Source: Candidatus Omnitrophota bacterium (GTDB taxonomy: Bacteria; Omnitrophota; Gorgyraeia; Gygaellales; Profunditerraquicolaceae). From it: a DNA stretch of 64,000 bases. Location: positions 135,992-199,991 of the forward strand of contig JBAZTA010000003.1 in NCBI GenBank assembly GCA_041662125.1. The letters are read 5' to 3'. A program made the position numbers and the translations under genes. Shown piece after piece: positions 20,698 to 49,618 of the stretch. Position 1 is the stretch's first letter, and each line of letters begins with the position of its first letter. The notes under the pieces are model-generated. The model had not been told where the DNA came from. It saw only the letters and a program-made list of their open reading frames with translations, and did not search any database.

Positions 20698-20728
20698 ATA
20701 CTCCTGTTATCGATTCTGCTTAAAAAAT

Positions 20729-21244: not shown

Positions 21245-21310
21245 CTCCTTTAAAAATAACCTGATGGTTATTTATTGTTTTGGGAAAACTGCGGTAATAG
21301 ACGCTTTTGA

Positions 21311-30142: not shown

Positions 30143-30886
30143 TCAGTTAACGCCTCCTTTTATTTGCTCTTGCTCACCAGGATTGTTAGTGATTATTTCT
30201 CTTAATTTAGATTCATCGAATTCTTGGGTGAGAGGGTCATAACTGAACTGTTGATATATTTGTTTTTTTACATCTTCAAACAGGGTAATAATCTGTTCTT
30301 CGGAAAAGCCGGCTTGCTTTTTTTGTTCATAAAAGATCGGCCACGATCCAAGAGCTTGCTGCATTCTTTCTTTATACGCTTTGAGCCTTTCTTGCATCAA
30401 TTGTTCAGCGATTTCTTCTGGCTGTTGCGCCAGAGAGTTTTGCAAAGTTGAAGCGCTGGTTATTTCTTCGCATGTGGAATTGATCTTAGTTTTACAGGCG
30501 TACTTTCCTTTATTACAAATATAGCGCATAGTGATAAGCTCTTTTTTACAGTTGTCACAGGGTTCAAAGCTTGCTTTTTTATCAGCAGAGGTATAAATGA
30601 TCATTTTTAAAGAATTATCGTTTCTATCGAGCAGTTTCTTTTCTTCTTTCGACAACGTATCTACCCAGGTTGTCGAGAGGCGTTCATCGGCAATATAGCC
30701 TTCTCTTACTTCTGATAAAGGTAAACCGCAAACAGGGCATTTTGTGATCATCTTGTGGTCAATTTGGACGAGCGTGTCGGTAGGGCAGCCTTGAATTCTC
30801 GATTCAGCAGCACAGAAAGTGATATTTGTTAGGACAATACAGGCCAATACAAAACATTGATAGAGTCTAAACTGATTCTTTTGCAT
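30143..30886 (-). CDS. Cys-rich secreted protein with C-terminal Gln/Glu-rich helical region, hypothetical
   Basis: 247 aa. A signal peptide is followed by CxxC pairs 'CPTDT...CPVCG' and 'CDNCKK...CNKGKYAC...C'. It is translationally coupled to the repeat protein. Confidence 0.45.
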   Translation of the reverse strand: MQKNQFRLYQCFVLACIVLTNITFCAAESRIQGCPTDTLVQIDHKMITKCPVCGLPLSEVREGYIADERLSTTWVDTLSKEEKKLLDRNDNSLKMIIYTSADKKASFEPCDNCKKELITMRYICNKGKYACKTKINSTCEEITSASTLQNSLAQQPEEIAEQLMQERLKAYKERMQQALGSWPIFYEQKKQAGFSEEQIITLFEDVKKQIYQQFSYDPLTQEFDESKLREIITNNPGEQEQIKGGVN

Positions 30887-33072: not shown

Positions 33073-33103
33073 AGTAATTAATATATCAAATAACCGATTC
33101 TTG

Positions 33104-34057
33104 TCAATTATTTTTATGAGGCACTGTAATAGCTTTAAACTCTTTAACACCAAACTGTTTCGTATAATATTTCCAGGCCCCTTCACAATATAAATTATAC
33201 ACGCAAATTTTACAACAAGCAAATTTAATTTTTGAGTCTCTTCTCCTTCTTTTTTCAATAAAAAATGATTCTCTTCCCCGAGTGCCTATCGCTGTTTTCC
33301 TTTGTCCATCCTTGAATTCACCAACTATACCTTGAAAATTCGGGATCCCGGCTAATATGCAAAAGGGGATATCTCCCACAGTGAGATTAAGTTTCATCTT
33401 TTTCGCAAGGCCAACTGCTGCAGTAAGATGCTTTTTTATTGCAGTATAGCGAGGTACTAATAAATCAAAATTACGCCGTCCTCTTCCTTCCGGATTAATA
33501 AAGTTTAGCCGAAAATCCCTTAATTGGAACTTTTGGGAGAAAAAGCGGATCATTTTCGAAAGATCACGGTAATTTAATTTATTAATAACTATATTGAGCA
33601 ATATATTATCTTTAATGATCCCTTTTTTTCTGAGTATTGCTAAATAACGCAGCCCTTGTGTTTTTTCAGAAAAGCCTCCTTTTACCGCGGTCAGAAAATC
33701 TTCGGTTGCGGCTTTATGGCTGTGAATAGAAATATAAAAGCGTGACGCTCCGGCCTGTATGATTTTTTTGAGGAATACCGCGTCAGAGTAACGCCTGCCG
33801 TTGCTGACCAAATAAACACCCTGGAATCCGAGCTTTCTGGCAAAGAGAATCGATTCTACGAGATGGGGGTATAGTGTCGGCTCACCTCCCAGAAAACCGA
33901 TCATACGGTAGCCCTGTTTGTAAAAATCCAGGAGCTCTTTTTTTACTTCTGTGACAGGGATGAATTTCTGCTCTTCGCGCGGGACGTCACTCATGCAAAA
34001 TTTGCAGCGGTTATTACAGAGAAACCCCAGGTTAATTTCAGCTTTTTTATCTTCCAT
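33104..34057 (-). CDS. radical SAM enzyme, roughly 300-aa 'type B' (N-terminal CxxxCxxC, C-terminal CxxC...C cluster)
   Basis: 317 aa. 'CNNRCKFC', 'LGGEPTL', and C-terminal 'CCKICVYNLYCEG' are present. Confidence 0.8.
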   Translation of the reverse strand: MEDKKAEINLGFLCNNRCKFCMSDVPREEQKFIPVTEVKKELLDFYKQGYRMIGFLGGEPTLYPHLVESILFARKLGFQGVYLVSNGRRYSDAVFLKKIIQAGASRFYISIHSHKAATEDFLTAVKGGFSEKTQGLRYLAILRKKGIIKDNILLNIVINKLNYRDLSKMIRFFSQKFQLRDFRLNFINPEGRGRRNFDLLVPRYTAIKKHLTAAVGLAKKMKLNLTVGDIPFCILAGIPNFQGIVGEFKDGQRKTAIGTRGRESFFIEKRRRRDSKIKFACCKICVYNLYCEGAWKYYTKQFGVKEFKAITVPHKNN

Positions 34058-34994
34058 GAAGTATTTTGGCCGTGATCGCTTCTTTACTCACAAATACAGG
34101 ATGAAGCTCTTTTGAGGAATAAAATTTGTCCATTTGATATAACCCGGGGCATATGCTGTCAAGGAAACAGGTTTTGCAGCAGTCTGTTTTGTCATATCCC
34201 CATTTTTTCTTCCAATCGTTTTCATAATGAAAACCGCGGTTGTCCAGGAAAAATGTTACGCGGTTCTCTTTTTTTACCAGTTTTCTGGTCTCATTGAGGA
34301 CGTGTTCAAACTCGGGAAGCGCGCAGAGCGGCAAGCGCTCTACTCTGAAAGTTTTATGGTGTTTTTCCAGGAATACCAGCGCACGGTGCAATGATAATTC
34401 AATTTCTGACAAGCGGGGTATCGTATCCGGATTTTCCTTGGCCCTGTCCATGTAGGGGTCAAGGTTATTCCAAACAAAATGGCGCACAAAGGAGAAGTTT
34501 TTTACGATCCAGGATACATTTTCATACAAATGGCCGGCATTATAGTGGTTGATCACGATATTCATATCAACTCTGATCTTTGGAAGTTTCTCTAAATTCC
34601 TTAAAGCTTTAATAATATTGTCCAGGGCGTCTTTGTTTTGAGTTAAAAACGATTGGATCTCTTTTTTATACGAATAAAAAGAAAGATGCAACTGCTGTAA
34701 TCCCGCTTTTTTCAACTCCAGCAGGTAAGAATAATCGGCTAACTTCTGCCCATTTGTGATGATACGGCAGGGCATGTTTTTTACCCGGCAATAGCTGATT
34801 AAATCACCTAAGAACGGAGAAAGTGTTGGTTCTCCCCCGGTAAATATGATCCCATCATAGGATTTCTTAATATAGAGATCGATTAATTTCTTGCCTTGTT
34901 CAAGGGTGAGTGTTTTTTTTGTCGGAGGATTCGAACAAAAACGGCATTGCTGGTTACATTCCCTGGTGAGTTGGATATACGCTAATGACGCCAC
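34047..34994 (-). CDS. radical SAM enzyme, type B paralog
   Basis: 315 aa. 'CNQQCRFC', 'FTGGEPTL', and C-terminal 'CCKTCFLDSICPG' are present. Confidence 0.8.
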   Translation of the reverse strand: MASLAYIQLTRECNQQCRFCSNPPTKKTLTLEQGKKLIDLYIKKSYDGIIFTGGEPTLSPFLGDLISYCRVKNMPCRIITNGQKLADYSYLLELKKAGLQQLHLSFYSYKKEIQSFLTQNKDALDNIIKALRNLEKLPKIRVDMNIVINHYNAGHLYENVSWIVKNFSFVRHFVWNNLDPYMDRAKENPDTIPRLSEIELSLHRALVFLEKHHKTFRVERLPLCALPEFEHVLNETRKLVKKENRVTFFLDNRGFHYENDWKKKWGYDKTDCCKTCFLDSICPGLYQMDKFYSSKELHPVFVSKEAITAKILHGR

Positions 34995-35037
34995 AGTGTT
35001 GACCTCGCTTTGTACATGTTTTGATCTGACAGTTGGC

Positions 35038-36231
35038 TCATATGTTTTTTAAGATCTTAAAGCCTTTTTCCCGTATCAGCCTGATAGGGGCTCCGTTGCA
35101 GTTTTTATGCGCTTTACAGAGATCGCACCTCAAGCTTTTCAAGAAAAACCTTTCATTGATAAAAAAATCCAAAAACGCGTTAATATCAATTGTGCCCTGC
35201 GTAAGAAATCGTTTGAACCTGCGCCGGTGCGTTTGAATGCAAACACCTGTTTCTTTTGACACTATTTGTTTATCTTTCTTTAGTTTGACCAGGTCGTTAC
35301 AAAAATCTTCGATAAAACAATAGCGGCATTGAGCTCCAAAGCACGGCATAAGTTCGCCTCGCTTGATAAACCGAGAAAACAGCGACATTCTTCCCCTGAT
35401 CTCATCTTTTAATTTTTCCGGGTGCTGGATCAATTCTTCAAATCCTTCCAAGAACCGGGCAGGGAACCGATTGGTCCAGATATAAATATCAGGGAACTCA
35501 TATTGCAGCTGAAAGGCTTTTTTGAGATACGGTGCGGCTGCAGGTATTGTATACAGGACTTTCTCCTTATTCTTCCAGGCAGAGCCAAACGGCGTCACTT
35601 GGAGCAGATCAAATTCGGTTATATTGCGAGAAATAAAAAATCTCATAATATCCTCCAGATGCCGATAATTGATCTTATTGATAACGATATCAATATTTAT
35701 AATCAGGCGGTTGGACTCCAATGCGTTTGTCAGTCCCGCCATTGCCTGCGCAAATGAACCTGTAACGCCTGATTGCTTCTCATAAAGCGTTTTCGTATGG
35801 CCGTGCATCGAAAAAGTTATTTCACTGACTCCCGCAGCGACTGCTTTATTGAGAAAAGACCGGTAGTAAAACATGCGGCCGTTTGTCACGACTTGGACCT
35901 GCGCATAGCCTAAGGTTTTTGCAAGTTCCACAATACGCAGGAAATGGGGATGCAGGGTAGGTTCTCCTCCTGAAAGGATAAGTTTAACAGAACCCTCAGA
36001 GATTCCCTGTTCCATTTCCTTTTTTAAGGCAAGAATGCTTCGAGAAGTTCCATTGTGATGAACGCTATCGAGGCAGAAAACGCAGTTGTTATTACAAAAA
36101 TTCGTCAATCGCAGCCAGAATTTTTTTTTCTGCGCGGCCTCTTTACGTTGCGTTATTCGAGTTTTTAACTGGTTCAAGCTCTTTATCTCCATAGAGTGAG
36201 TAATAGTGCTCAAATATCCCGCCGCAAACAC
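35038..36231 (-). CDS. radical SAM enzyme with extended Cys-rich C-terminus
   Basis: 397 aa. 'CNNNCVFC', 'SGGEPTL', and C-terminal clusters 'CFGAQCRYC...C' and 'CDLCKAHKNC' are present. An alternative start at ATG 36190-36192 would reduce the 89-nt overlap with the upstream gene. Confidence 0.75.
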   Translation of the reverse strand: MFAAGYLSTITHSMEIKSLNQLKTRITQRKEAAQKKKFWLRLTNFCNNNCVFCLDSVHHNGTSRSILALKKEMEQGISEGSVKLILSGGEPTLHPHFLRIVELAKTLGYAQVQVVTNGRMFYYRSFLNKAVAAGVSEITFSMHGHTKTLYEKQSGVTGSFAQAMAGLTNALESNRLIINIDIVINKINYRHLEDIMRFFISRNITEFDLLQVTPFGSAWKNKEKVLYTIPAAAPYLKKAFQLQYEFPDIYIWTNRFPARFLEGFEELIQHPEKLKDEIRGRMSLFSRFIKRGELMPCFGAQCRYCFIEDFCNDLVKLKKDKQIVSKETGVCIQTHRRRFKRFLTQGTIDINAFLDFFINERFFLKSLRCDLCKAHKNCNGAPIRLIREKGFKILKNI

Positions 36232-37066
36232 TCTTGTACAAACAACAACGGCATACGGCGGTCTTTATTCTTTTTCTTGTTGGACGCATGCATCTTTCTT
36301 CTTTTACATAGTTTTTTTTACCCGCGGCAAGTTCAAGCGTAAGGCGTTCATCCCAATAGAAATCGTTTGAATAACAGGCGAAATCACCTAAAATACAAGC
36401 CGGCATGCCAAAAAACCTGATAATACTTTTATGCGCATTAGCCTTTTTAATCAAAACCGGTATTTTTGTTTTGATTTCAGAGAGCCTGACGGCTAATGCT
36501 TGGTAATCGCGTAACCCTCTTCCTTCCGGAGCAAGATTCGAAAAAAGCATGTGTTTGATCTTTTTCTTCAAGAGAAATGTTTCTATTTTTTCGAGGGAAT
36601 TAAAATTAAGCCTGCTGATTACTGTGTTGCTAAAGATCCTGATCGGATAATCAGACAACCATGCTAATGCCCGGGATAGATTGCTAAAACTCCCCTGGGT
36701 TTTTACGATCATATTATGCTCTTTCGCCGAATGCCCATGGATGGAAAAACATACTTCATCAAGGTATGCGGCTACCTGTGAGCAAAACTTTTTTTCTGAA
36801 AATCTACCCCCATTAGTGCCCACGCGGATCGAATAACCCATTTTCCTGGTTTCCTGTGCCAGCTCCGTAAAAAACGGGACAAGGGTCGCTTCTCCTCCGG
36901 TAAAATGCACGCTCGTAAAGCCTTTCTTTTTCTTTTCTTTTAACAACGTAAGAATCGGATCAAGGGCAAGCGGTTGTCTGTGAAACCGGCCGATAGCATC
37001 GGAAGAACTGCAAAACACACATTTCTGTGAGCAGGTATATGAGATATGAAAGTCAATATGTTCCAT
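36143..37066 (-). CDS. radical SAM enzyme, type B paralog
   Basis: 307 aa. 'CSQKCVFC', 'FTGGEATL', and C-terminal 'CRCCLYKSVCGG' are present. Confidence 0.8.
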   Translation of the reverse strand: MEHIDFHISYTCSQKCVFCSSSDAIGRFHRQPLALDPILTLLKEKKKKGFTSVHFTGGEATLVPFFTELAQETRKMGYSIRVGTNGGRFSEKKFCSQVAAYLDEVCFSIHGHSAKEHNMIVKTQGSFSNLSRALAWLSDYPIRIFSNTVISRLNFNSLEKIETFLLKKKIKHMLFSNLAPEGRGLRDYQALAVRLSEIKTKIPVLIKKANAHKSIIRFFGMPACILGDFACYSNDFYWDERLTLELAAGKKNYVKEERCMRPTRKRIKTAVCRCCLYKSVCGGIFEHYYSLYGDKELEPVKNSNNAT

Positions 37067-37093
37067 TTAAAGATTTTAGCACAGTAATACCAT

Positions 37094-39025
37094 TCATACA
37101 CGGCATTTCGCTTTAATCCGGCAAATCTCATCCGCCCCATAAAGAGTGCGATAGCCGTTAATGATTCCCAAACACTTTTGTTTGAATAAACATTCCTTGC
37201 ATTCTTTTAGTTTGATAAATCTTTGGTCAAGCAGGTAAATCTTCATTGAGTCGGAGATTTCGTCAGCGCTTTTAATCAGGTCTTTTTGAACTTTTTGTAC
37301 AACACAAAGGGGAAAAGCGACTAAACAATTTATTCCCTGTAAAAGGCTTTTTATATCTGCGTATGAAGGCATGAGGTTTTGCAGAGGCATATTTGCTGTT
37401 TTCGGCCTTACCGGCAACGCGATAAAGGGTTTATTCATCTCTCCCTTGACAAATTCTTCTAAGGCTAAAAGATGCCCTATATTCTGTTTTAATACATTGG
37501 TATGGATATACGTGCGCGCGCCGTATTCTGCCGCGTTTTTTATCCCCCGTAAGACTTTCCGGTAACTGCCCCTGGTTCCAACAATAGTATCATGAACGCG
37601 CGGGTCATTGGAAAAAAGCGGAAGTGAGAATGAACTGGCCCCCCGCTGAATGAGGCAACGCGTAAACGCCTTATCTGCCAAGCATTCCCCGGAGGTCATG
37701 ATCTCTATAGTTTCAAAGCCGTTGGTTTTTGCAAGTTCGACTACTTCAAATATATCGTCATATAAAAGAGGATCGTTGCCGATAACGCAGAGCTTTTTCA
37801 CGCGCAGGACTCTGTTTTCTTTAAGCTTTATTTTGATCCTTAACAGGTCAGCCTGCCCTTCCCCTTGTTTTTTGGTACAAAAGATGCAATCGTTCGCGCA
37901 GGGCCCATCGATGTATAAAAATAAAGAATTGATGCTTAATTGTTTGCTCTGCTCTTTTTGAAGCTTGAAAGCACCTCGTATGAACGGGATGAGCGCAGGA
38001 TGTTCATTCGAGCGTAAGGCTTCCTGAGGAGCTGCGTTAAAGAAATCATCGAGTGTAATCCCTAAGTCAATATTATTATCTAAGATGTCACGTTGCTTCA
38101 AAGAGCAGGCTTTATTAAATATTTTATACAAGCTGTATTTGGTTTTAAAGAACGAATCAATGTGTTGTTCCTGAAAGACATCTCCCAGGAAATAATATTT
38201 GCGTAACTCAGGGAATGTTTTCTCCATAAAAATAGCGGCGTCAAAATACATCTTGCCGTCTGTATCTACTAATATTTCCTGGCTCAACATCGTAGGTTCG
38301 CAGTGGTTGGTAAAATTCATCAGAAAAGAACTGCTTGCGGGCAGAGCGCGTATTTTGGCAAGTTCATTTATGAGCCGGTCTTTTTCATCCTTGAGCCAGC
38401 GTATGCCGGTCTGATAACAGAGTTGGATCCTCTCCACCGCATGTGTTCGCAGGAAACATATACTCTTTAATAATTCAGTTGTGGTATCCGGGGCCACGAC
38501 CATATTGACAAAAAAAGGGATACCGGATTTCTTCAGGCATTCTAAATTAGCCAGGAGCGGCCCATAATAATCCTGTTTATGCAAAGCAAACCGGTGCCGC
38601 AAAGTCAAGCGCCGGCCTCCGTCTAAAGAAAACATGATCTCGACCGGATATTTTTTAAGGAAGCTGATTTTTTTACTATCAAGGAGCAGGCCGTTCGTGG
38701 TTATCATAAAGGTGATCTTTTTTTTTCGTTTGAACGCCTGTTTTTGCGCGTATACAATTGCATCTTTGATGAAATCCCATTGTAATAACGGTTCCCCTCC
38801 CCAAAACCTAAGCCTGCATTCCGCTTCGTGAGTGCTTAAAAGTAGCGCTACCGCTTTGCGTAAGACAGGCCTGGTCATTGATGAGCTTGTGCGTCGTATT
38901 TCGCAATAATCACAGTTTAATTGGCAACGATAGGTACACATGATCATCAGGCTGTTAACGTACGTATGGTGTTGGGGTTCTAAAGAATCTCTCGTTATAT
39001 CAATAGTCAGGGTTTTTTTCTGCAT
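37094..39025 (-). CDS. double radical SAM fusion protein (type A N-domain plus type B C-domain)
   Basis: 643 aa. N-domain 'CTYRCQLNCDYC' and 'WGGEPLL' is a paralog of the 39970..41187 ORF. C-domain 'CANDCIFC' with terminal 'CKECLFKQKCLG' is a paralog of the 300-aa type B enzymes. Confidence 0.8.
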   Translation of the reverse strand: MQKKTLTIDITRDSLEPQHHTYVNSLMIMCTYRCQLNCDYCEIRRTSSSMTRPVLRKAVALLLSTHEAECRLRFWGGEPLLQWDFIKDAIVYAQKQAFKRKKKITFMITTNGLLLDSKKISFLKKYPVEIMFSLDGGRRLTLRHRFALHKQDYYGPLLANLECLKKSGIPFFVNMVVAPDTTTELLKSICFLRTHAVERIQLCYQTGIRWLKDEKDRLINELAKIRALPASSSFLMNFTNHCEPTMLSQEILVDTDGKMYFDAAIFMEKTFPELRKYYFLGDVFQEQHIDSFFKTKYSLYKIFNKACSLKQRDILDNNIDLGITLDDFFNAAPQEALRSNEHPALIPFIRGAFKLQKEQSKQLSINSLFLYIDGPCANDCIFCTKKQGEGQADLLRIKIKLKENRVLRVKKLCVIGNDPLLYDDIFEVVELAKTNGFETIEIMTSGECLADKAFTRCLIQRGASSFSLPLFSNDPRVHDTIVGTRGSYRKVLRGIKNAAEYGARTYIHTNVLKQNIGHLLALEEFVKGEMNKPFIALPVRPKTANMPLQNLMPSYADIKSLLQGINCLVAFPLCVVQKVQKDLIKSADEISDSMKIYLLDQRFIKLKECKECLFKQKCLGIINGYRTLYGADEICRIKAKCRV

Positions 39026-39100
39026 AGTATTTCCTTAGCCTTCCGACAGGGCATATGCTTTTATCTTTTGTTCAGGCTTATAGCTATTCTAAAACAATGA

Positions 39101-39979
39101 TTAATCTGTGAAATAACGTTTTTGCAGCCCCTTGCAGGAGTGCGCAAAACGGCAATCGACGCAAAATGGCCTTTTACTGAATAGCCTGTTGAATTTAGAC
39201 ATATAGGCTGATTTCTTTGTTTTTGCTTGGATCAAAGTATCTACTTCATGATTTTCTCTTATACTGGCCGGGTGAAAACCTTTAAGGTCGTTTTGCCTGC
39301 GGTTGGCTGATTCAGGATACAGTAAGCAGGGCGCAAAACCGCGAAAGACTATGCGAGCCTGGCGCAGGCCAAGAGTGCGTATACGGGTCAAATAATCTTT
39401 GATTTCCGGCAAACTCAAATGGCTCGCCTTGCCCTTTGGTATGATTTCTTCGGCGATTATAAAATCCCTGATTGATGCTTTATAGAGTGAAGTAATTGTT
39501 TTTTCCAAATCGCGATAATTAAAAGAGCTCAATACAGTGTTGATCCGTATCGAAATATCGAACTTTTTACGCAATGCGATAAGGTTGCGGATACCCGCTT
39601 TTGTTTCCCGGCAGCTTCCTGTTCTTTGAGTTATTCGATCATGTGTTATATCCCGTACGCTATACAAGGAAACCGCGAATTCATTGACACCAGCGATCAA
39701 TAAATCGCGGGTGAAAGCGGGGTTTTTCAATAATCGCGCGTTCGTGATGATTCCTATTGCACGAAAACCCCTTATTTTGCAGTGTTTAACTATTCGTATC
39801 AGCCCGCGCAACATCGTTACTTCCCCGCCGGTAAGGGTGATCGTCTGGCTTGTTTCTCGCGTCTTATTGATACTATGGTAAATTTGCTTAAGGGAGTTGC
39901 AACTGATAATGGCATGGAACTCATGCCGGGGGCAAAACAAACAATCATTATTGCACTTCAGGCTTAAGGTTATATCCAT
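39101..39979 (-). CDS. radical SAM enzyme, type B paralog
   Basis: 292 aa. 'CNNDCLFC', 'TGGEVT', and C-terminal 'CVDCRFAHSCKG' are present. Confidence 0.8.
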   Translation of the reverse strand: MDITLSLKCNNDCLFCPRHEFHAIISCNSLKQIYHSINKTRETSQTITLTGGEVTMLRGLIRIVKHCKIRGFRAIGIITNARLLKNPAFTRDLLIAGVNEFAVSLYSVRDITHDRITQRTGSCRETKAGIRNLIALRKKFDISIRINTVLSSFNYRDLEKTITSLYKASIRDFIIAEEIIPKGKASHLSLPEIKDYLTRIRTLGLRQARIVFRGFAPCLLYPESANRRQNDLKGFHPASIRENHEVDTLIQAKTKKSAYMSKFNRLFSKRPFCVDCRFAHSCKGLQKRYFTD

Positions 39980-41187
39980 AATTTCTTAATGAATATGCTA
40001 TATTGTGATCCAAGGTTTATGTTGTTGAGGATAATTTTCCTCATGCCTTGCCCCCCTGCACCATAGGCTCTTGATAAAAGGTAGAAATTAGTTAGTGGGC
40101 TTACGCTTAAAAGATTAATATTGCCTGCTTTTTTTACGTCTGTGACAAAGAACTTTTTTTTCATTGATTTAAAATCTTCTTCCAGGCATATCCCTGTTTC
40201 CCGGAAAATCTCTCCGTTACAGTCAACGGTGAGCTCCGCGTTTAACACGACAGGCTCTTTTCTTTCATCAGAAAAATTTAAAAACTTGATTTCTTTGTGC
40301 TTGCGCAGATAGCGAGCGATCTTCGCGGTCTCTTTAAAAAGTGTCGCTACAGCATTGTCAGGCCAGAAAACGCCAAGCGCGTAATTAGCCTGAAGTTTTT
40401 TGAACCCGAGTTTAACGAGGTATTTAAAACTTTCAAATAGTTTGCCGGCATCCTGAGGCATGAAAACGCTGATCGAATAATGAGGGAGCGTTGAATCAAA
40501 CAAAGCAGAGAAGTTCTTTGTAACAATGTCATAATAATTGTTTTCGTTTCGATGCCCCCTGTTCTTAAGTTGACGCTGTATTTCCCCGTCAATACTGCAT
40601 TCGACGCAAAAATTGTGTTTGGAGAAATAATCGATGGTTTCTTTCGTTAAACAAATGCCGTTTGTGGTCAAAAGAAAACTCACGGTTTTTTTTACAGCAG
40701 GCTTCAGGCTCCGGGCGTATGCAACGGCTTTTTTTATAAGGTCAAAGCGTAAAAGCGGTTCTCCGCCGAAAAATTGCAGTTGGATATGCCTGCGGTTACT
40801 GGTAAAGAGCAGATCTATGGATTGACGTAATACCCTCTCATCCATGGAGTCAGTGTACTTTTTCACCCGGCAGTAGCGGCAGCGCAACTGGCAGCGGTGA
40901 GTCAACAGGACGATTAACCGCTCAGGCGGCTGAAAGATCCTTTCTTCAAGCAGGCTGGCCGCAAGCATGCGCGTCCGAAGCAGCCTTTTATAAACTAAAC
41001 CCCGCAGATCATGGTATCGATTAACAAGAATTTCCAGCTGTTTTACTGTCTTGTTTGCTTTGTTTTCTAAAAGCAAACATTCTTTCTTGACCAAGAGCGA
41101 GTACAGTATGGATTCCGCGCGCTCCAGTTTTCTTATGTCAAAATCAAAGATAAATGATTGTAACAAGCCTTCAATTCGATTGACCAT
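39970..41187 (-). CDS. radical SAM enzyme, type A (stand-alone)
   Basis: 405 aa. 'LTHRCQLRCRYC' and 'FGGEPLLRFDL' are present. It aligns by eye with the N-domains of 37094..39025 and 44873..46660 and with the C-domain of 41171..43948. Confidence 0.8.
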   Translation of the reverse strand: MVNRIEGLLQSFIFDFDIRKLERAESILYSLLVKKECLLLENKANKTVKQLEILVNRYHDLRGLVYKRLLRTRMLAASLLEERIFQPPERLIVLLTHRCQLRCRYCRVKKYTDSMDERVLRQSIDLLFTSNRRHIQLQFFGGEPLLRFDLIKKAVAYARSLKPAVKKTVSFLLTTNGICLTKETIDYFSKHNFCVECSIDGEIQRQLKNRGHRNENNYYDIVTKNFSALFDSTLPHYSISVFMPQDAGKLFESFKYLVKLGFKKLQANYALGVFWPDNAVATLFKETAKIARYLRKHKEIKFLNFSDERKEPVVLNAELTVDCNGEIFRETGICLEEDFKSMKKKFFVTDVKKAGNINLLSVSPLTNFYLLSRAYGAGGQGMRKIILNNINLGSQYSIFIKKLWI

Positions 41188-43948
41188 TTTTCTTGAAATA
41201 TGCCCCGGTTAATTTGCCCATGGTAATATTATTTAAAATTACTTCTTTGCTGTGGGTATCCTGGTAATAGTTTAAGAGATGGTATAAAATCAGGAATTTA
41301 GAGATCACGATATCATTTATATCCCTACAGGCTGCAATGGTAGTAACCGGCGGGAGGCGTGATTTTGTTTTATTTTCGAATAATAAATCAGTCAAAAAAT
41401 AGATCGAGCCATCACAATCGACCATTATCTCTGCGTTTAAGACCGCCGGTTCAACCCGTGACCCCCCATTGCTTAATCGAACAATGCCTTTTTTAATAAA
41501 CCGGCCGGCTTTCTTTTGAATGATATCAAGTTCGCGAAAAAAAATCTTTCGGGAAGCTTCGTCCCAGATAGTGCCGAGGGAATAATTAATCCCGATATTC
41601 CTGATGCCTAACGTCAAAAGATGGTAGAAATTGCGTGAAAGGTGTTTCACTGTCCCGGGAGTAGTGACCATGACTGCATAATGCGGGATATTCCGGCATA
41701 AGATATACTGCAGCCGGGATGTTGTCACTTGATACGGATTCTTGACGCGCGAGCAGGCTTTATTGCGGTTATGGAATGATTCTTCGCCGTCAATTGATAA
41801 TTCAAGAAAAATATCTTCTTTTGCCAGGAAATCAGCTATCTCTTTGTTAAGCGCTATAAGGTTGGATACCAGGTAAAAGGATATCTTCTTATTCTTTTTC
41901 TGAGCGATCTTTTTTGCGTAGTGTACTCCTTGTTTGAGGAGATCAAAGCGTAATAAAGGCTCTCCTCCCGTGAAATCAAGCCTCAAATGCTGCCTTCGGG
42001 AAGTAAAGAGCAAATCGATCGATTTACGCAACGTATTTTCATCCATATCAGCATTGCGCTTGGTGATTGGGCAATAGGCGCAGCGCAACTGGCATCTTCT
42101 GGTGAGCATCAGTTGGATATTACATCTGCTATTCCCGATTCCTCTGCCGGTTTTTTTGCGGATAATTTCTGGGTATGAGGCGAATTCATCGATTACGCGC
42201 GTTATCGCATCTTTTGCAGTCGGCAGGCGCTCCTTGAGCAAAAGCAATTCAAAAAGAAAATCATCAAGAATTTTGATGTAATCCGCCTCTGACCTAAAAA
42301 GGCCATCTAAAAAAGGTATCATTGCCTTGACCGCTTTATCCATAGGTATGTCATGGTTAATGAGAGGATAATCAAACTCGGGGTACCCCTTGACAGTCAG
42401 CTTTCTGGTAACAGCTAAGTATCTGTTGAGATTGTTTAAGCGAGCGATCCTATAGCTGGCAGAAGGAAAAAGCGAGACTAAATACGGGATGATCGGCGTT
42501 AGGATCCCAAAAAACCTGCCGCATGAAATTTGAAATTGCGCTATCGATATTAAATTAACGACAATGTTTTTAAGCGATGTTGCATGATTACTGGCGATAA
42601 AATGGTGGCTTTGATTGATTTTCTTTCTCGATAATACGCGTACTACTTTTTCGATTTTTACAGCAGTATAGCCTTTTCCCAGCCTTTGTAACTCTTCGTC
42701 GCAAAAATTTTCAGACCCCAGGTATATATTTTGCTGTTTTCGGGAAAAAGCAGAGGCAGATATATGCGTGAGCAGTTTTGTATCAAGCGAGGCAGTCCTG
42801 CGTCCGCGCTTTACGGTATAAAATGAATTAATTCCCGCTTGGAAAAAATTGACTTTAAAAGGCGTGCGGGGAAGGTAATCGAAGAATAACGCCGCTCTTT
42901 TGGCATCAGCAAAGAAATCGTCGTCATGGAATGAGATCTGGAGGGCAGTTTGAGGAATTGACCGCGGAAAAAGATGCTTAAGCCGGCTGTAATAATCCTT
43001 AAGGATGAGTTTTATGTTTTGAAAACTTTTACCGCAGTACTGCCCTTTCCCGGGAGTTGTGCAAAAAAAACAATTATTAAAACAGCCGCGGGAAGTGTAC
43101 AGGTTTATTCCCTCCTGCACATTTTCCTTCTCGATAAAACTAAAATCAAGAATTGAGGCGTCATAATTTTTAAGGCAATTTACTTTATCGAGGTTAGCAA
43201 TAATGAGCTGGGATGAATTCTGAAATATAAAGCCGTTAAGCTGCAAAAGGCTTTCTATGCGCGCCTGGGATAAGGCGCTATCTGGATGAAATCCGGTTAA
43301 ACATTTGACGATTTGAGGAAAAATGTACTCACCGCTGCCTCTTACTAAAAAATTGACACGGGGTAAATGGATGAAGGTGTGCTCAGGTGTGAGTGTCGGC
43401 ATAACACCTCCGACTCCAATAAAAGAGCGTGTTCGCCGCGATAGAAAATCGATCAATGCTTTCACCTGGCGGAAATAATCTTCACAAAGGCTGATTCCGA
43501 CGCAGAGTATATCCGGATTATTCATTAAGAGCGTTTCTAATTCGTTTTTTCCGGTAATAAACTTATCTGGATCAAGGGAAACTTTTGCGTCACTGAGAAG
43601 AACGGATATTCCCGATTTTTTTAAACCCGAAGCTAAGTATAAAGTGCCCGCGCTTATCCAATTTGTATTTTCTTTATTGCCTGAATTGTAAATATTCTTA
43701 AAGAGGAGCACTTTGGGTACGCGCAGCTTGTAGCCGGATGTCCGCTTCTTTTCTTTATGATGAGCCTGTTTGCCTGTTGAAAGTTCGATGATCGCAGGCG
43801 TGCCACTTTTTTTATAATACGTATTCGCAATTTTAAGCAGGTAAGCATTTTGAAGCTGGCAGTAGCCTTGCGTGCCGTTAAAACACAGGGAACCTGAAAA
43901 TGCAACGCTATCAGTTAGTTTGAGGCAGAGAGATTTTTTACGAAGCAT
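41171..43948 (-). CDS. tri-domain protein: B12-binding domain, class-B-like radical SAM, and type A radical SAM
   Basis: 925 aa. The N-terminal Rossmann-like cobalamin-binding region ('VLLFKNIYN...LYLASGLKKSGISVLL...IGVGGVMPTLTPEH') is followed by 'YTSRGCFNNCFFCTTPG'. Near residue 600 a second core starts: 'LTRRCQLRCAYC', 'FTGGEPLLRFDL'. Confidence 0.75.
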   Translation of the reverse strand: MLRKKSLCLKLTDSVAFSGSLCFNGTQGYCQLQNAYLLKIANTYYKKSGTPAIIELSTGKQAHHKEKKRTSGYKLRVPKVLLFKNIYNSGNKENTNWISAGTLYLASGLKKSGISVLLSDAKVSLDPDKFITGKNELETLLMNNPDILCVGISLCEDYFRQVKALIDFLSRRTRSFIGVGGVMPTLTPEHTFIHLPRVNFLVRGSGEYIFPQIVKCLTGFHPDSALSQARIESLLQLNGFIFQNSSQLIIANLDKVNCLKNYDASILDFSFIEKENVQEGINLYTSRGCFNNCFFCTTPGKGQYCGKSFQNIKLILKDYYSRLKHLFPRSIPQTALQISFHDDDFFADAKRAALFFDYLPRTPFKVNFFQAGINSFYTVKRGRRTASLDTKLLTHISASAFSRKQQNIYLGSENFCDEELQRLGKGYTAVKIEKVVRVLSRKKINQSHHFIASNHATSLKNIVVNLISIAQFQISCGRFFGILTPIIPYLVSLFPSASYRIARLNNLNRYLAVTRKLTVKGYPEFDYPLINHDIPMDKAVKAMIPFLDGLFRSEADYIKILDDFLFELLLLKERLPTAKDAITRVIDEFASYPEIIRKKTGRGIGNSRCNIQLMLTRRCQLRCAYCPITKRNADMDENTLRKSIDLLFTSRRQHLRLDFTGGEPLLRFDLLKQGVHYAKKIAQKKNKKISFYLVSNLIALNKEIADFLAKEDIFLELSIDGEESFHNRNKACSRVKNPYQVTTSRLQYILCRNIPHYAVMVTTPGTVKHLSRNFYHLLTLGIRNIGINYSLGTIWDEASRKIFFRELDIIQKKAGRFIKKGIVRLSNGGSRVEPAVLNAEIMVDCDGSIYFLTDLLFENKTKSRLPPVTTIAACRDINDIVISKFLILYHLLNYYQDTHSKEVILNNITMGKLTGAYFKKNGQSN

Positions 43949-43971
43949 TGTATAATCAAATCGTTTTAAAA

Positions 43972-44886
43972 CTACTCAATTACTGGTTTAAATTCAACCC
44001 AACCGTTTCGTTTTATATATGGTTCCCAGACGCCATCACAGATGGTAGCGTAAATACATTTTTCACAAGAAACCCCTTTTATTCTTTTGGGGTTCCTGCG
44101 TTCAACCCTCACATTTTTATTTTTGCTTAATAAAATCGATTCGAAGCTACCCAAGAGGTTCTCAAATCCTCTTAATACGCATGCCGGTAACCCAACGATA
44201 CCTATGCCGACCCTGCGATGTGATCTGGCATCAAGTTTTAACGCAGTAACGGAATTCTTAAAAGCTTCGGCCAAAAACGTGTAGTTAGGGCTCAAACGGT
44301 TTAAAAAAAACAATCCATTGCCAGCGGGTATAACGCAATTTACACCGATACTTTCTACAGATTTAAAACCGAGCGCTAAACGATAAAAATCAATCAGGTT
44401 AGAAGCATTTATCGCATTAAGCGTTATATTAATCCGCCAAATAAAATTGTTTGTTTGTCTTAAAATATCAAGATTCCCGCAGGCTTTCGTTGTTTGTTCA
44501 AAACTCCCCTTGGTACGGGTTAAGGCATCATGAATTTTACTGGTACTCCCATGGAGAGAGACTATTATTTCAGTAATCCCGCTTGATAACAAGGCTTTTG
44601 CATAGTGTATATAGCTCAGGCGCCTCGCGTTGGTGATCAAGCGGATGTTTGAATAACCTGCTGCCCTCGCAGTTTTTATATACTCTGTGAGAGAGTCATT
44701 GACGGTTGGTTCAGGCCCTGTGAAAATAATGTTTTTTGTCCTGCGGACGCCTTTTTTTAAAAGCTGATGAAGCTGACGGGGTGATTTCGCAGTACTGCTA
44801 TGATTAACCTTATCGATGCAAAACAAGCAATTGTTATTACAGCGGTCATTAATAATACACTGGAGCGTAACTTCATTTTGCAGCAT
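43972..44886 (-). CDS. radical SAM enzyme, type B paralog
   Basis: 304 aa. 'CNNNCLFC', 'TGPEPTV', and C-terminal 'CEKCIYATICDG' are present. Confidence 0.8.
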   Translation of the reverse strand: MLQNEVTLQCIINDRCNNNCLFCIDKVNHSSTAKSPRQLHQLLKKGVRRTKNIIFTGPEPTVNDSLTEYIKTARAAGYSNIRLITNARRLSYIHYAKALLSSGITEIIVSLHGSTSKIHDALTRTKGSFEQTTKACGNLDILRQTNNFIWRINITLNAINASNLIDFYRLALGFKSVESIGVNCVIPAGNGLFFLNRLSPNYTFLAEAFKNSVTALKLDARSHRRVGIGIVGLPACVLRGFENLLGSFESILLSKNKNVRVERRNPKRIKGVSCEKCIYATICDGVWEPYIKRNGWVEFKPVIE

Positions 44887-46660
44887 GGGTGCCTTTCACC
44901 GGGACAAATTCATTCCAACCGAAAAAAGCGGGATATTCAATCCACGTTCCTTCACAGCGGGCATAATAGATGCAGTTTTTGCAGTTTTCTGCTTTAGTTT
45001 TTGCTAAGCCAGGACGAAGCTTGTCAAAATCAATTATTTCGTCAGGAAACTCGTAGATTTTAGTAGACGGGATACAGCGTTCCGCGATAAACCTGTTATA
45101 AGAACCCAGCATGCAAGAGGGTATTGCTTCAGTCATTACCGTAATACCGGCGTTTATGCCGATGGTTAGGGCTTCTTTGATATAGGGGATCACTAAGCTC
45201 ATGCGCGGGACTATAGAATTGAAATTTTCAGCGGCAGAGCCGAGCGCATGGACGAAAGCTAACTGGAACTGTTTTACCCCCAGATATACCAAAAGCCGCG
45301 CGATTTCAGGAAGCTGCCGATAATTCGATTGAGTAATAACCGTGTTTGAATAAACCGGTACGTTAAGCTTGGTCAAATTTGTAATTGCTTTGACGGTTTG
45401 AGCAAAACTTCCCGGGGTAGATGTAAGATAATCATGCATCGCAGGAATATGCCCGTGAATGGCGACCCCAAATTCATTGGCGCCTGAATCGATTGTTTTA
45501 ACACAAAAATCTTTATACGCGAACATGCGGGCGTTCGTCTGGATCTGTATCCTGCGGTAACCCAATTTCTTTGCAAAGCTCACAAGCGTAAAAAAATCCT
45601 CACGGATCGTAGGCTCGCCTCCGGTGAAAACAACTCCGTTAGAAGTTGCCCGCGCTTCTCGCAGTATTTTCTGAACATCGTGCGTTGACTTATCCTGCAG
45701 TATTTCTTTTTTCTTGCCTTGAACGCAGAATTTACAATTGTTATTGCACGAATATCCGATTTTAATATCCGCCCGAACGATCTTGATCTTGAGGCTATCC
45801 ACAAAATTACACAATAACCGGTCAACAATGTAGGTATCGCTTATGATATCTTTGGAAAAGGCCTTTTTGATTATTATCGGCATTTGGCGCGCATCAAAGC
45901 GCAATGCGCTATTCGATATAGAATTGACGTGCCCAAGAAATAACTTATTTTTTTCGTTAGCCATGTTCTTAAAAAGGACGCAATTGCTTGCGTAGAAGTT
46001 TCCAAAGGGATCACAGGTCAGCCCGGTATTAAAAAGCGGGACATCTCCTTTTACCTCTGAATTCTTAAAATAGATTTCTGGTTTGTCGCATGCAAACAGA
46101 GAGATCTTTTTGAATTGGCGTTCTAAGTTTTTTATGTGGAGCCCCTTCCAGTCCACATAGTAATTCGGTAAAATGTTAAAACGCCTGAAACCTGACGCAT
46201 AGAGTTTTTTGAAATCAGAAAAAGCATGACAGGCGCCTTTTGGCGTGATATTAACGGTAATGGTTAAGAAAGGATACTTGGGAAGCGTAAGCGTGGCTTT
46301 GATTTTCTTGATATGGTAGGAATCAACCACGATTTCTATCTCGTGTTTCAAGCAAAATTTCACTATTGTTTCATCAATGAGAGTGCCATTGGTAGCCAGG
46401 ACAAAATTGATTCTTTTATGGAGCCGGCGCGCAATATGATCCGCGTAGATGACTATATCTTTGAGCAGCGAAACCTCAAGAAGCGGTTCTCCTCCAAAAA
46501 ACTTTATCGTCTTCTGTTCTCCGTGAGTCTGTAAAAAGAACAAAACCGCTTTCCGGGCGATCTCCTTTTTTATTGAAATATTTGTTTTCTCGATGCCGCA
46601 AAAAGAACAGCCTTCGTTGCAATTTTGAGTTAAAACAAGAGTCAGGAAAGTATTGTCCAC
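44873..46660 (-). CDS. double radical SAM fusion protein (type A N-domain plus type B C-domain)
   Basis: 595 aa. N-domain 'CNEGCSFC'/'FGGEPLL'. C-domain 'CNNNCKFC'/'TGGEPTI' with terminal 'CKNCIYYARCEG'. Confidence 0.8.
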   Translation of the reverse strand: MDNTFLTLVLTQNCNEGCSFCGIEKTNISIKKEIARKAVLFFLQTHGEQKTIKFFGGEPLLEVSLLKDIVIYADHIARRLHKRINFVLATNGTLIDETIVKFCLKHEIEIVVDSYHIKKIKATLTLPKYPFLTITVNITPKGACHAFSDFKKLYASGFRRFNILPNYYVDWKGLHIKNLERQFKKISLFACDKPEIYFKNSEVKGDVPLFNTGLTCDPFGNFYASNCVLFKNMANEKNKLFLGHVNSISNSALRFDARQMPIIIKKAFSKDIISDTYIVDRLLCNFVDSLKIKIVRADIKIGYSCNNNCKFCVQGKKKEILQDKSTHDVQKILREARATSNGVVFTGGEPTIREDFFTLVSFAKKLGYRRIQIQTNARMFAYKDFCVKTIDSGANEFGVAIHGHIPAMHDYLTSTPGSFAQTVKAITNLTKLNVPVYSNTVITQSNYRQLPEIARLLVYLGVKQFQLAFVHALGSAAENFNSIVPRMSLVIPYIKEALTIGINAGITVMTEAIPSCMLGSYNRFIAERCIPSTKIYEFPDEIIDFDKLRPGLAKTKAENCKNCIYYARCEGTWIEYPAFFGWNEFVPVKGTHAAK

Positions 46661-46743
46661 GTATGTATAACGGATTTATAAGGTTACGTACGTTTGGCAC
46701 CCGTGTAGCTAAATGCAGGGATTAACACAATGAATGTAAGCAG

Positions 46744-48237
46744 TTATTGTGAACCGGCTGGTAATGTGTAATTTGCCCATTTATAAAACAATTTCTTTAC
46801 CTTTGTATTCCTTAATTTATCAAACAAAAAGTCAAGTATCCCTTTATTGATTATGCAGCGGGGATTTGAACTTATATGAGAAAAGATATTGCCTTCATAC
46901 GACCAGTTAAATATAGGGCAAACTCCGCAGTAGGGTTTATACGCGCATAAATCACAGCTGGTGTTATCCAGGCAGGAAGCCATACTTAAGACTTTTACCG
47001 TAGAATGGTTCACGATTTCTTTGTATTTATTTTTTGATACATTCCCTATGCAGAATATTTCATCGCCGACCATTCGCCCTTCATCGCAGGTATAGACCTT
47101 TCCGTCATAGTTATAGAGCAGTTGGCCTATCCCGGCACCGCAGGGAGAACGCAACTCAAGAAAATTCGGGTCATAGTCGGTAATGATCTTGGCAAGGAAT
47201 ATCTTAGCGGTGTTCTCATGAAAATGGCTTTTGGGGTGTTTTAACGCGTAGGATATGACACGGTTAAGTGCCCGCGTATAGAATTTCAAGTATTCTTGCG
47301 GGGTATAGCCGATATCTTCCCACATGTTTTTCGCGATACCCAGGGGAGTCATCGGGCGCAAAAAAATAAATTCAAGGCCCCTTGTAATATATTCATTGAC
47401 GATTGCTTCAGGGCATTTCAAAGAATCTTTGCTTACGGTAAGAAGAGCCCCGGGCTTGAATTTATTATCAAGTTTTGATTTGTAAACTTTTTGGGCTTTT
47501 TTGAGCCAGCGAACCGCTTGACGATGATTATTCCCTTTGCTCCAGATACGGTTCTTATTATGGATATGTTCCGGGCCATCAAGAGAAGTACAAACAGTAA
47601 CTGAGTTTGCTACGAGAAATTTAAGTTTTGCCTCATCCATTAAAGAAAAGTTAGAAACAAGCCGTAGCTCAAGATTCTTCTTTTCCACCTTGTTCTTGGT
47701 TTTACTGTATTCAATAATGAATTTAACGGTTTGCCAATTAAGCAGCGGTTCGCCTCCCTGAAACTCAAGAGCAATTGTTTTCGAAGGAGACAAAAAGATC
47801 ATATCGACGATTTTTTTGGCGGTGGCGATGTCCAGGTCAAAGCCTTTTTCTGATTCTGCTCGGGACGAGCTTTGGCAATAAATACATTTTTGATTACAGC
47901 GCAGCGTGACAACGATGATATGCAGAGACGGGCCCTGCCATAAGAATAAATTCTTTTTCTGGTATTTTAACACAATATCCGCAGTATTGATCTTATCCCG
48001 GATCAATCCTTGTGTCTTTAATATTTCAAAGATCGGGCCATGCTGAGGCAACGTTCCTTCCAGAAAACTCGTAAAATTCTTTTCGGAGAGTATCACGTAT
48101 TCTCCGACATCATTGGTGAGCAGATAATCGGATGCGCCCTGTTTTTTAAATCTAAAAAATCCGACTTTCTCCCAATCAACTTTTTTTATTATAGATTGAT
48201 TCATGTTCGCTCCTGTATCCAATGCTCCTTTACTCAA
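46744..48237 (-). CDS. radical SAM/SPASM-domain enzyme (anSME/HxsB-like maturase) with an N-terminal extension of about 95 aa
   Basis: 497 aa. 'LRCNQKCIYC', 'QGGEPLL', and the C-terminal SPASM pattern 'CGAG...C' and 'CDLCAYKPYCGVC' are present. Confidence 0.75.
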   Translation of the reverse strand: MSKGALDTGANMNQSIIKKVDWEKVGFFRFKKQGASDYLLTNDVGEYVILSEKNFTSFLEGTLPQHGPIFEILKTQGLIRDKINTADIVLKYQKKNLFLWQGPSLHIIVVTLRCNQKCIYCQSSSRAESEKGFDLDIATAKKIVDMIFLSPSKTIALEFQGGEPLLNWQTVKFIIEYSKTKNKVEKKNLELRLVSNFSLMDEAKLKFLVANSVTVCTSLDGPEHIHNKNRIWSKGNNHRQAVRWLKKAQKVYKSKLDNKFKPGALLTVSKDSLKCPEAIVNEYITRGLEFIFLRPMTPLGIAKNMWEDIGYTPQEYLKFYTRALNRVISYALKHPKSHFHENTAKIFLAKIITDYDPNFLELRSPCGAGIGQLLYNYDGKVYTCDEGRMVGDEIFCIGNVSKNKYKEIVNHSTVKVLSMASCLDNTSCDLCAYKPYCGVCPIFNWSYEGNIFSHISSNPRCIINKGILDFLFDKLRNTKVKKLFYKWANYTLPAGSQ

Positions 48238-49604: not shown

Positions 49605-49618
49605 GTGAGTAATATTTG

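Follow-up and report, generated by a model that had tools for sequence, protein, structure and literature searches.

A radical SAM protein with two predicted active sites, one of cobalamin type, in an expanded His-Xaa-Ser gene cluster of an Omnitrophota bacterium

The closest described relatives of the gene cluster treated here are the His-Xaa-Ser (HXS, or Hxs) systems, which in their canonical form consist of HxsD, HxsB, HxsC and HxsA, with the four genes found in >99.8% of cases and 99.7% of the systems located in Pseudomonadota (Li et al., Nat Commun 2026, PMC13128918). The canonical HxsA carries five repeats of His-Xaa-Ser (HxS) and a peptidoglycan-binding domain, and the system has no B12 enzyme (PMC13128918). 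An anti-phage function of HXS was demonstrated in 2026, and in the E. coli system a periplasmic effector blocks the entry of phage DNA (PMC13128918). In E. coli, the maturation of HxsA by HxsB, HxsC and HxsD consists of N-terminal processing and a covalent modification that depends on radical S-adenosylmethionine (radical SAM, or rSAM) chemistry; the modification, +8 Da (of the +C/-4H type) at one SHRSS repeat, is not a simple methylation (PMC13128918). Neither a cobalamin enzyme nor any expanded variant is mentioned in that paper (PMC13128918). Here we describe a stretch of 64,000 nucleotides (the window) from Candidatus Omnitrophota bacterium, taken from contig JBAZTA010000003.1 of assembly GCA_041662125.1 (positions 135,992 to 199,991 of the forward strand), in which a minus-strand gene encodes a 925-residue protein combining a putative cobalamin-type rSAM module with a second rSAM core. 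Judged from sequence and gene neighborhood, this fusion is probably a maturase with two rSAM active sites that belongs to an expanded, HxsA4-type His-Xaa-Ser peptide-modification system.

A fused gene and its two modules

The gene encoding the fusion is an unbroken frame of 925 codons with an ATG start. The upstream gene ends 23 nt before it and the downstream gene is overlapped by 17 nt, a tight spacing of the kind expected in the interior of an operon. An NCBI record from a metagenome-assembled genome (MAG), 'MAG: radical SAM protein [Candidatus Omnitrophota bacterium]', on a contig of 395,841 bp, matches the translated protein at 100% identity. The identical open reading frame (ORF) recurs in run SRR18595301, on a contig of 23.9 kb in a Logan assembly that was computed separately. 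Relatives at 73% (JGI) and 71% (ENA) identity encode fusions of 922 residues with the same synteny as the window, and of 55 homologues collected by a word-indexed search (28–73% identity), 43 carry both cysteine motifs at near-constant spacing; these come from many assemblies and are colinear. Because the identical ORF is found in a second assembly, close relatives retain the fusion with the same synteny and the homologues are colinear, the fusion is not an assembly artefact, and an artefactual origin is rejected as far as computation allows. An earlier reading of this DNA, made by a model from the letters and their ORFs (the sequence-only reading), had named a stop between the domains in independent assemblies as the mark of a false fusion. 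A stop of this kind is present in three distant Elusimicrobia MAGs at 34–44% identity, and is absent from the same-species assembly and from the relatives at 71–73% identity. The architecture given in that reading, in which one protein joins a B12 domain to two rSAM cores, the first of them class-B-like, is borne out and its modules can now be placed (Table 1), and the motifs that it named (CFNNCFFC, CQLRCAYC and GGEPLL) are all found in the translation. The structure prediction that it had proposed as a check likewise agrees, since the AlphaFold2 model matches both B12-dependent rSAM structures and CteB/anSME in Foldseek searches. The proposed Pfam check came out in part: the B12-binding family PF02310 passes, marginally, and in place of two matches to PF04055 there is a single one, at aa 615–765 in the C-terminal module (C-module).

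We identify residues ~79–591 as a putative cobalamin-type (class-B-type) rSAM module (the N-module), despite weak Pfam scores, because of an alignment with OxsB, the families matched in NCBIfam and the predicted fold. When residues 1–601 were searched against the PDB by sequence, OxsB was the sole significant match, with an alignment that spans aa 122–463, from the Rossmann domain into the rSAM core (E = 1.1e-7 for the single sequence and 1.4e-11 for the family profile), and places CFNNCFFC on the TSRGC..C..C motif of OxsB. All ten NCBIfam matches to the N-terminal half are B12-binding rSAM families (BchE, ladderane-lipid B12 rSAM, HpnJ, BzaD, PhpK, MJ_1487, Sden_1168, RiPP C-methyltransferase, KedN5 and MgmA, where RiPP denotes a peptide made by the ribosome and modified after translation), with every score far below the cut-off; the top match, to BchE (TIGR02026) at 44 bits, covers aa 85–297. 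The AlphaFold2 model of the fusion has a mean predicted local distance difference test score (pLDDT) of 88.1 and a predicted template modeling score (pTM) of 0.87, and in Foldseek it matches OxsB, TsrM, MgmA, CysS and TokK with E-values of 4e-17 to 4e-11. In an alignment of 29 full-length family members, the three cysteines of the first motif (C289, C293 and C296) are conserved without exception, and Gly 180, Pro 184, Thr 185 and Pro 188 of the B12 domain as well as the DDDF motif at residues 342–345 are invariant. A PF02310 match is also precomputed for most of the homologues.

The N-module is preceded by a poorly conserved extension with predicted strands at residues 20–24 and 52–55 flanking a helix at residues 31–48, and with pLDDT values below 50 at residues 1–15 and 63–74. 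Many homologues begin near residue 75, which limits query coverage to 91%. Pfam searches at E <= 10 with the fragments aa 1–85, 281–506, 479–608 and 785–925 returned no RRE/PqqD, SPASM or other domain. Residues 480–591 were considered as a part of the C-module, given that stand-alone relatives of 400 aa align from profile position ~543, and this assignment was rejected in view of the natural splits at aa ~591/592 described below.

In the C-module, the cysteines of the second triad (C619, C623 and C626) are Cys in 93–97% of these 29 family members, and Gly 661, Gly 662, Glu 663 and Leu 665 of the GGEPLL motif are invariant. The module matches CteB with E = 2e-16 as a single sequence and 2.7e-32 as a profile, and the structures closest to its core are those of the peptide maturases CteB, anSME and ChlB. 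Its NCBIfam scores of 129.9 bits for PapB and 117.8 bits for HxsB are both far under the cut-offs. It is not an HxsB, since the latter score compares with a cut-off of 370 bits for TIGR03978, is confined to profile positions 87–261 and is accompanied by no SPASM match. Cysteines of the SPASM/twitch type were not found in the module, as judged by the Pfam SPASM family and by the absence of conserved Cys after residue 626; the four that follow the second triad (Cys 732, 751, 845 and 874) are not conserved, and the two CxxxCxxC triads are the only conserved cysteines of the whole protein. On these features the C-module is best described as a relative of the SPASM/twitch peptide maturases that is itself SPASM-less. 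The sequence-only reading had labeled this core 'type A'. That label does not hold: the RlmN/Cfr family is not among the best 25 of 63 NCBIfam matches nor among the Pfam matches, and the extra catalytic Cys of that class has no conserved counterpart, so that assignment to the class A methyltransferases is rejected on family scans and cysteine conservation together.

The same reading had taken the C-module for a paralogue of the SPASM-less rSAM protein of 405 aa encoded directly downstream, and the two proteins indeed share 37.6% identity over 314 aa (E = 1e-65). The C-module also matches the N-terminal halves of two other di-domain rSAM proteins in the cluster. An orthologue of the 405-aa protein directly follows the fusion, or its separate halves, in loci L001, L004, L006, L007, L011, L013, L014, L018 and L022 and on the P0002 contig (hxs-linked), with the exception of L002, where a 551-aa rSAM protein follows the fusion. 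In the distant-clade loci L003 and L005 a rSAM protein of 374–376 aa beside the fusion is a candidate counterpart.

In three Elusimicrobia MAGs (L013, L014 and L018) the N-half and the C-half are encoded by adjacent separate genes in the order of the fusion, followed by a gene of the 405-aa type. The split homologues are 34–44% identical to the fusion, their junctions are canonical ATGA stop/start overlaps, and the break falls at the equivalent of aa ~591/592, which is why the module boundary is set there. The stand-alone C-half genes of L014 and L018 encode 334 aa, a length equal to that of aa 592–925, and their match to residues 608–919 of the fusion is better than that to the 405-aa paralogue. 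L007 and L011 are without the C-half, and there the 405-aa-type gene comes immediately after the N-half. The fused-versus-split state is a Rosetta-stone pattern and supports a functional coupling of a putative B12-dependent rSAM with a SPASM-less HxsB-like rSAM; split genes in distant species thus speak for coupling of the halves and not for an artefact, and the pattern makes two radical steps on one substrate, as proposed in the sequence-only reading, a reasonable inference, whereas processive action and C-methylation, also raised there, are hypotheses. These relationships also suggest an origin of the fused C-module by tandem duplication of a 405-aa-type gene.

The HxsA4-type precursor, the family and the operon

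The candidate substrate is an HxsA4-type precursor encoded in the same operon. Its conserved leader is followed by a hydrophobic segment for export, 13 consecutive HGS repeats and a C-terminal HGQW. Eight other loci, all distinct, likewise have an HxsA4-type precursor at a distance of up to 10 kb from the fusion or its halves, namely L002/L008, L022 and L023 from Omnitrophota, L004 from Aminicenantes, L009, L011 and L018 from Elusimicrobia and L016 from Myxococcota (the precursor lies at 7912–8199 in L002 and at 4061–4468 in L004). These precursors share the leader motif P-x-IKKDI..FL.SEEGKI.KK ahead of the hydrophobic segment and an invariant C-terminus, SHGSHGQW, and the number of HxS repeats ranges from ~4 to >30. 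That the terminal Gln-Trp is invariant points to a site of specific recognition or of cross-linking. In L009, L011 and L018 the gene order is HxsD-HxsB-HxsA4 followed by the fusion or the N-half, so that the precursor lies directly upstream. The precursor-bearing loci contain 9–14 rSAM motifs each, and arrays of 9–14 motifs are found in L001, L002, L004, L013, L014, L018, L022 and L023 (Omnitrophota, Aminicenantes and Elusimicrobia). The HxsA4 precursor is the most consistent neighbor of the fusion.

The 55 homologues come from Omnitrophota, Aminicenantes, Elusimicrobia and Myxococcota-like MAGs. In an exhaustive search with a profile, covering 1.84 billion cluster representatives, ~15–20 clusters (at 50% identity) matched the full-length profile as a single stretch, and stand-alone versions of each half and larger combinations of up to 5091 aa were returned as well; the protein of that length, P0091, contains a region matching the N-module. 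The full-length form is present in at least about a dozen of 185,579 species-representative genomes, and the matches listed are all MAGs, from Omnitrophota, Elusimicrobia and Myxococcota/'Deltaproteobacteria'. A divergent clade with ~30% identity and a length of ~1050 aa comprises loci L003, L005, L010, L012 and L019, from Myxococcota/'Deltaproteobacteria'. The family appears strongly linked to Hxs, yet not exclusively so, since the flanks of this clade are without an HxS precursor.

Some homologous loci contain further genes of note. L004 encodes a 733-aa B12-dependent rSAM protein and a 1304-aa multi-rSAM protein at 11970–18045. In L006, which encodes the homologue P0005 (52% identity), two Oxidored_nitro proteins and a NifH-family ATPase directly follow the rSAM run (17588–21517), and type IV pilin-like ORFs lie upstream. 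On the JGI contig of P0002, the relative at 73% identity, a 119-aa ORF with no domain match replaces the 292-aa HxsC-like rSAM gene found at 39101–39979 of the window, which suggests that individual rSAM genes are being gained and lost within the cluster.

In the window, the fusion is the fourth gene of an unbroken minus-strand array of ~19.7 kb and ~19 genes, running from 48237 to about 28564 (Table 1); the sequence-only reading had missed this Hxs context. The array includes 11 consecutive rSAM genes (33104–48237) with 14 CxxxCxxC motifs, and three of these genes encode di-domain proteins (the fusion, 37094–39025 and 44873–46660). To our knowledge it is among the densest rSAM arrays in a single operon. 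When the cluster is compared with the hallmarks of an Hxs system, HxsB is present above its cut-off as the first gene, the best HxsC score in the cluster is 136 bits against a cut-off of 267.9 (TIGR03977), and HxsD stays below the cut-off of TIGR03976 while the HxsD-related family passes. The four-gene D-B-C-A organization is not found, as there are ~19 genes with 11 rSAMs. Among the six rSAM genes in the interval 33104..39979, Pfam Radical_SAM was matched by all four that were scanned, and HxsC/HxsC4-like NCBIfam matches below the cut-off were obtained for all six. The HxsD-like protein has a syntenic orthologue in L001 for which a match to Pfam PF27806 (HxsD) is precomputed.

In the three paralogous small secreted proteins ('TTYYPS' proteins) the signal peptide is followed by a common motif, I-(T/S)-T-Y-(Y/F/H)-P-S..G.YD, and the C-terminus reads ...G(W/F/Y)(L/M)(L/I)C(D/I/H). 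Neither Pfam nor NCBIfam gave a match for them. Both L001 and L004 have orthologues, and these proteins may serve a type 4 Hxs system as further substrates or as partners. A secreted Cys-rich protein alike in position and composition to that of the window is found in L002 (7137–7910) and L004 (3084–4064), in each case encoded immediately upstream of the precursor gene. The polytopic membrane protein encoded directly downstream of HxsA4 is a candidate leader peptidase for it, and homologues are found inside the rSAM clusters of L014 (7472–8767) and L023 (4194–5360). Upstream, the array is flanked by genes for MtaB (48342–49715) and RsmE (49619–50359), and downstream apparently by gatC, as read from the 95-aa translation. 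Beyond MtaB and RsmE, an AmmeMemoRadiSam system on the minus strand (51054–53685) encodes a 509-aa fused Memo/AMMECR1 protein and a 371-aa rSAM partner; these neighbors are conserved in the relatives at 71–73% identity.

Table 1. Features of the fusion gene and of the surrounding array, in window coordinates.
Feature	Position	Strand	Basis
925-aa two-module radical SAM protein	41171..43948	(-)	Continuous ORF; identical NCBI record; Logan assembly
aa 1-78, variable N-terminal extension with small beta-alpha-beta element	43715..43948	(-)	AlphaFold2; poor conservation
aa ~79-235, putative cobalamin-binding Rossmann domain	43244..43714	(-)	Pfam PF02310; BchE TIGR02026; OxsB alignment
aa ~275-480, putative divergent class-B-type radical SAM barrel	42509..43126	(-)	OxsB alignment; Foldseek; invariant DDDF
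CFNNCFFC (aa 289-296), first [4Fe-4S]/SAM cluster motif	43061..43084	(-)	Translation
aa ~481-591, alpha/beta and four-helix C-terminal region of the N-module	42176..42508	(-)	AlphaFold2; module boundary at its end
aa 592-925, CteB/PapB/HxsB-like second rSAM module	41174..42175	(-)	PF04055; CteB alignment; NCBIfam
CQLRCAYC (aa 619-626), second [4Fe-4S]/SAM cluster motif	42071..42094	(-)	Translation
GGEPLL (aa 661-666), SAM-binding motif of second core	41951..41968	(-)	Sequence
405-aa SPASM-less rSAM, paralogue of the C-module, conserved downstream partner	39970..41187	(-)	37.6% identity
HxsA4-type precursor, 112 aa	29803..30141	(-)	NF038313 HxsA4 87.2 vs 55 bits; HxS scan
HxsB, first gene of cluster	46744..48237	(-)	TIGR03978 475.8 vs 370 bits; SPASM PF13186
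595-aa di-domain rSAM, HxsB-like N-half and HxsC-like C-half	44873..46660	(-)	Two Radical_SAM stretches; two CxxxCxxC
304-aa HxsC/HxsC4-like rSAM	43972..44886	(-)	NF038332 163 bits (cut-off 500); TIGR03977 67.5 bits
Six further rSAM genes	39101-39979; 37094-39025 (di-domain); 36143-37066; 35038-36231; 34047-34994; 33104-34057	(-)	Seven CxxxCxxC motifs
Three paralogous small secreted proteins	31575-32123; 32141-32608; 32623-33258	(-)	Translations
HxsD-like protein, 149 aa	31107..31556	(-)	TIGR03976 41 bits (cut-off 50)
HxsD-related protein, 70 aa	30901..31113	(-)	NF038315 HxsD_rel 56.9 vs 41 bits
247-aa secreted Cys-rich protein, directly upstream of precursor	30143..30886	(-)	Translation
394-aa polytopic membrane protein, weakly prepilin-peptidase (A24)-like	28564..29748	(-)	PF01478 17.5 bits, below gathering score

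Proposed function and competing explanations

As a two-site maturase of the HxsA4 precursor, the fusion would cleave SAM reductively in both of its modules, and both would act on the co-encoded (HGS)x13...HGQW precursor in the cytoplasm, before export and leader removal. For the N-module (module 1), we lean toward a methylation in which methylcobalamin is the donor and unactivated carbons in the His-Xaa-Ser units are the acceptors. SPASM enzymes use auxiliary clusters to oxidize substrate radicals, and because such clusters are missing from the C-module (module 2), its step would most likely be a redox-neutral one, initiated by hydrogen abstraction and needing no auxiliary cluster. The partners of module 2 would be the 405-aa paralogue and the products of the nine remaining rSAM genes in the operon. 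The intact triads in 43 of the 55 homologues and the invariance of GGE and DDDF down to 28% identity imply that both predicted active sites are under purifying selection. By analogy, the biological role of the mature product may be that of a periplasmic or exported effector, either anti-phage or metal/DNA-binding.

Several observations weigh against this assignment or parts of it. The PF02310 match at aa 97–213 scores 32.8 bits against a gathering score of 32.1, and the middle rSAM core falls below that of PF04055 (17.2 versus 29.5 bits), with a match restricted to the region of the Cys motif. The nearest characterized relatives of the N-module, BchE and OxsB, are B12 enzymes that do not methylate. 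Two full-length homologues, P0028 (986 aa) and P0031 (848 aa), have no second CxxxCxxC motif, so the second module may be non-catalytic in some lineages. The divergent clade has only the pair of fusion and ~375-aa rSAM, with no HxS precursor in its flanks, and the cluster in the window encodes other secreted proteins that are possible alternative substrates.

The alternative that survives best leaves the substrate in place and changes the chemistry: module 1 would perform some other B12-assisted radical change on the His-Xaa-Ser units, such as a cyclization, ring contraction or rearrangement. BchE as the best NCBIfam match, OxsB as the best PDB match by both sequence and Foldseek, the lower scores of the C-methyltransferase families TIGR03975, KedN5 and MgmA, and the +8 Da change of E. 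coli HxsA would all fit such a reaction. However, all family scores are so far below their cut-offs that their ranking is little informative, and TsrM, TokK, CysS and MgmA are strong fold matches as well. Most of the characterized B12-dependent rSAM enzymes that act on peptides, including PoyB/C, TsrM, Mmp10 and MgmA, are methyltransferases. We regard a non-methylating module 1 as unlikely, though as a contender of some weight.

A single radical reaction, with one of the modules silent and serving in substrate binding or as a scaffold, is improbable. P0028 and P0031, the absence of a C-half from L007 and L011 and the loss of all auxiliary-cluster cysteines from module 2 would be compatible with it, and with no separate RRE domain in the Pfam fragment scans a degenerate rSAM domain might instead bind the peptide. 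Set against this, the window protein retains both triads, as do 43 of 55 homologues, and GGE in module 2 and DDDF in module 1 are invariant in 29 members down to 28% identity.

Still less probable is that the substrate is something other than HxsA4, such as the 'TTYYPS' proteins, the Cys-rich secreted protein, or an intermediate of a small molecule or cofactor. This would account for the distant-clade flanks without HxS precursors, for the recurrence of TTYYPS-type proteins in L001 and L004 and of a Cys-rich secreted protein in L002 and L004, and for the module of NifH and two Oxidored_nitro proteins beside the rSAM run of L006; but HxsA4 is the gene most consistently co-located with the fusion, lies directly upstream of it or of the N-half gene in three Elusimicrobia loci, and the accessory proteins are missing from several loci. 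Least of all do we credit an assembly or frameshift error joining two adjacent genes, for which the separate halves in three Elusimicrobia MAGs might be cited: given the evidence from the second assembly, the close relatives and the colinear homologues set out above, and with clean ATGA overlaps in distant species, the split forms represent a natural alternative state.

A two-site maturase of HxsA4 can be extended, tentatively and as a possibility rather than an expectation, to an undescribed, expanded 'type 4' Hxs pathway of which the fusion would be the signature enzyme, with up to 14 rSAM sites, a cobalamin-dependent one among them, iteratively rebuilding every unit of an (HxS)13-30 peptide. 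If true, Omnitrophota, Elusimicrobia, Aminicenantes and some Myxococcota would make a densely cross-linked, methylated, polymer-like exported peptide, a new RiPP chemotype. For ultra-small bacteria associated with hosts, such a product could serve in the envelope as an effector that acts against phages or binds metal or DNA.

The fusion itself combines known kinds of component, a class-B-type rSAM, an HxsB-like rSAM and an Hxs system, and the interest lies less in the fusion than in an uncharacterized and extremely rSAM-rich Hxs branch of uncultivated phyla. The locus is an extreme natural variant of Hxs, with 14 rSAM sites and a precursor consisting nearly throughout of HGS repeats; one of the sites is predicted to depend on cobalamin and is covalently tethered to a SPASM-less rSAM. 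Such a repetitive substrate offers a simplified means of learning what Hxs-type rSAM enzymes do to His-Xaa-Ser, at a time when the modification chemistry of HxsA (+8 Da on one repeat) is still unsolved, and new B12-dependent reactions on peptides may come from this family. It numbers ~50 members, all of them from uncultivated phyla. NCBIfam holds no curated model for a B12-rSAM/rSAM fusion or for the 405-aa partner, and members currently carry wrong labels such as 'sulfatase maturation enzyme AslB' or 'YgiQ'.

Comparison with known systems

The B12-dependent rSAM enzymes of solved structure with which the fusion was compared are OxsB (5UL2-4), TsrM (6WTE/F), TokK (7KDX/Y), CysS (9N1B-D) and MgmA (9CCB). 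Like these, the predicted N-module has an N-terminal Rossmann-type B12 domain, a rSAM barrel with a CxxxCxxC motif and a helical C-terminal region. Unlike these, from which it differs with only 11–18% identity, the fusion contains a second complete rSAM module. The maturases compared with the C-module, namely CteB (5WGG), PapB (NF047865), HxsB (TIGR03978) and anSME (4K36-39), share with it the rSAM core of CxxxCxxC and GGE, with Foldseek alignments to CteB and anSME over ~310–410 columns, whereas the module scores far below the equivalog cut-offs of the SPASM/twitch families (340–370 bits) and is without their defining auxiliary [4Fe-4S] clusters. No description of a B12-dependent rSAM fused to a second complete rSAM core, or of mega-clusters of this kind, was found in the full-text literature searched.

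In common with canonical HXS, the window encodes a true HxsB, HxsD-like and HxsC-like proteins, the latter rSAMs, and an exported His-Xaa-Ser repeat precursor in one operon. It differs in its ~19 genes, 11 of them rSAM genes with 14 motifs, in the B12-rSAM fusion and in that no protein reaches the HxsC cut-off, and its precursor differs from canonical HxsA in having 112 aa with 13 HGS repeats and no peptidoglycan-binding domain. The locus comes closer to the 'type 4' Hxs loci of NCBIfam, in that the precursor passes the HxsA4 model (NF038313) and the 70-aa protein the HxsD_rel model (NF038315); since curated models for HxsA4, HxsD_rel and HxsC4 exist and these two proteins pass, the variant class as such is already recognized by the NCBIfam curators. 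It departs from 'type 4' in the HxsC4 model (NF038332), which is unreached (best score 180 versus 500 bits).

A further parallel is provided by the polytheonamide pathway, in which the B12-dependent rSAM C-methyltransferases PoyB/C and the rSAM epimerase PoyD, which is free of auxiliary clusters, act on one precursor. The enzymes of that pathway, unlike the fusion, are separate polypeptides and are unrelated to it in detail, and the likeness is conceptual: in both cases a cobalamin-type rSAM and a non-SPASM rSAM would iteratively modify a repetitive ribosomal peptide.

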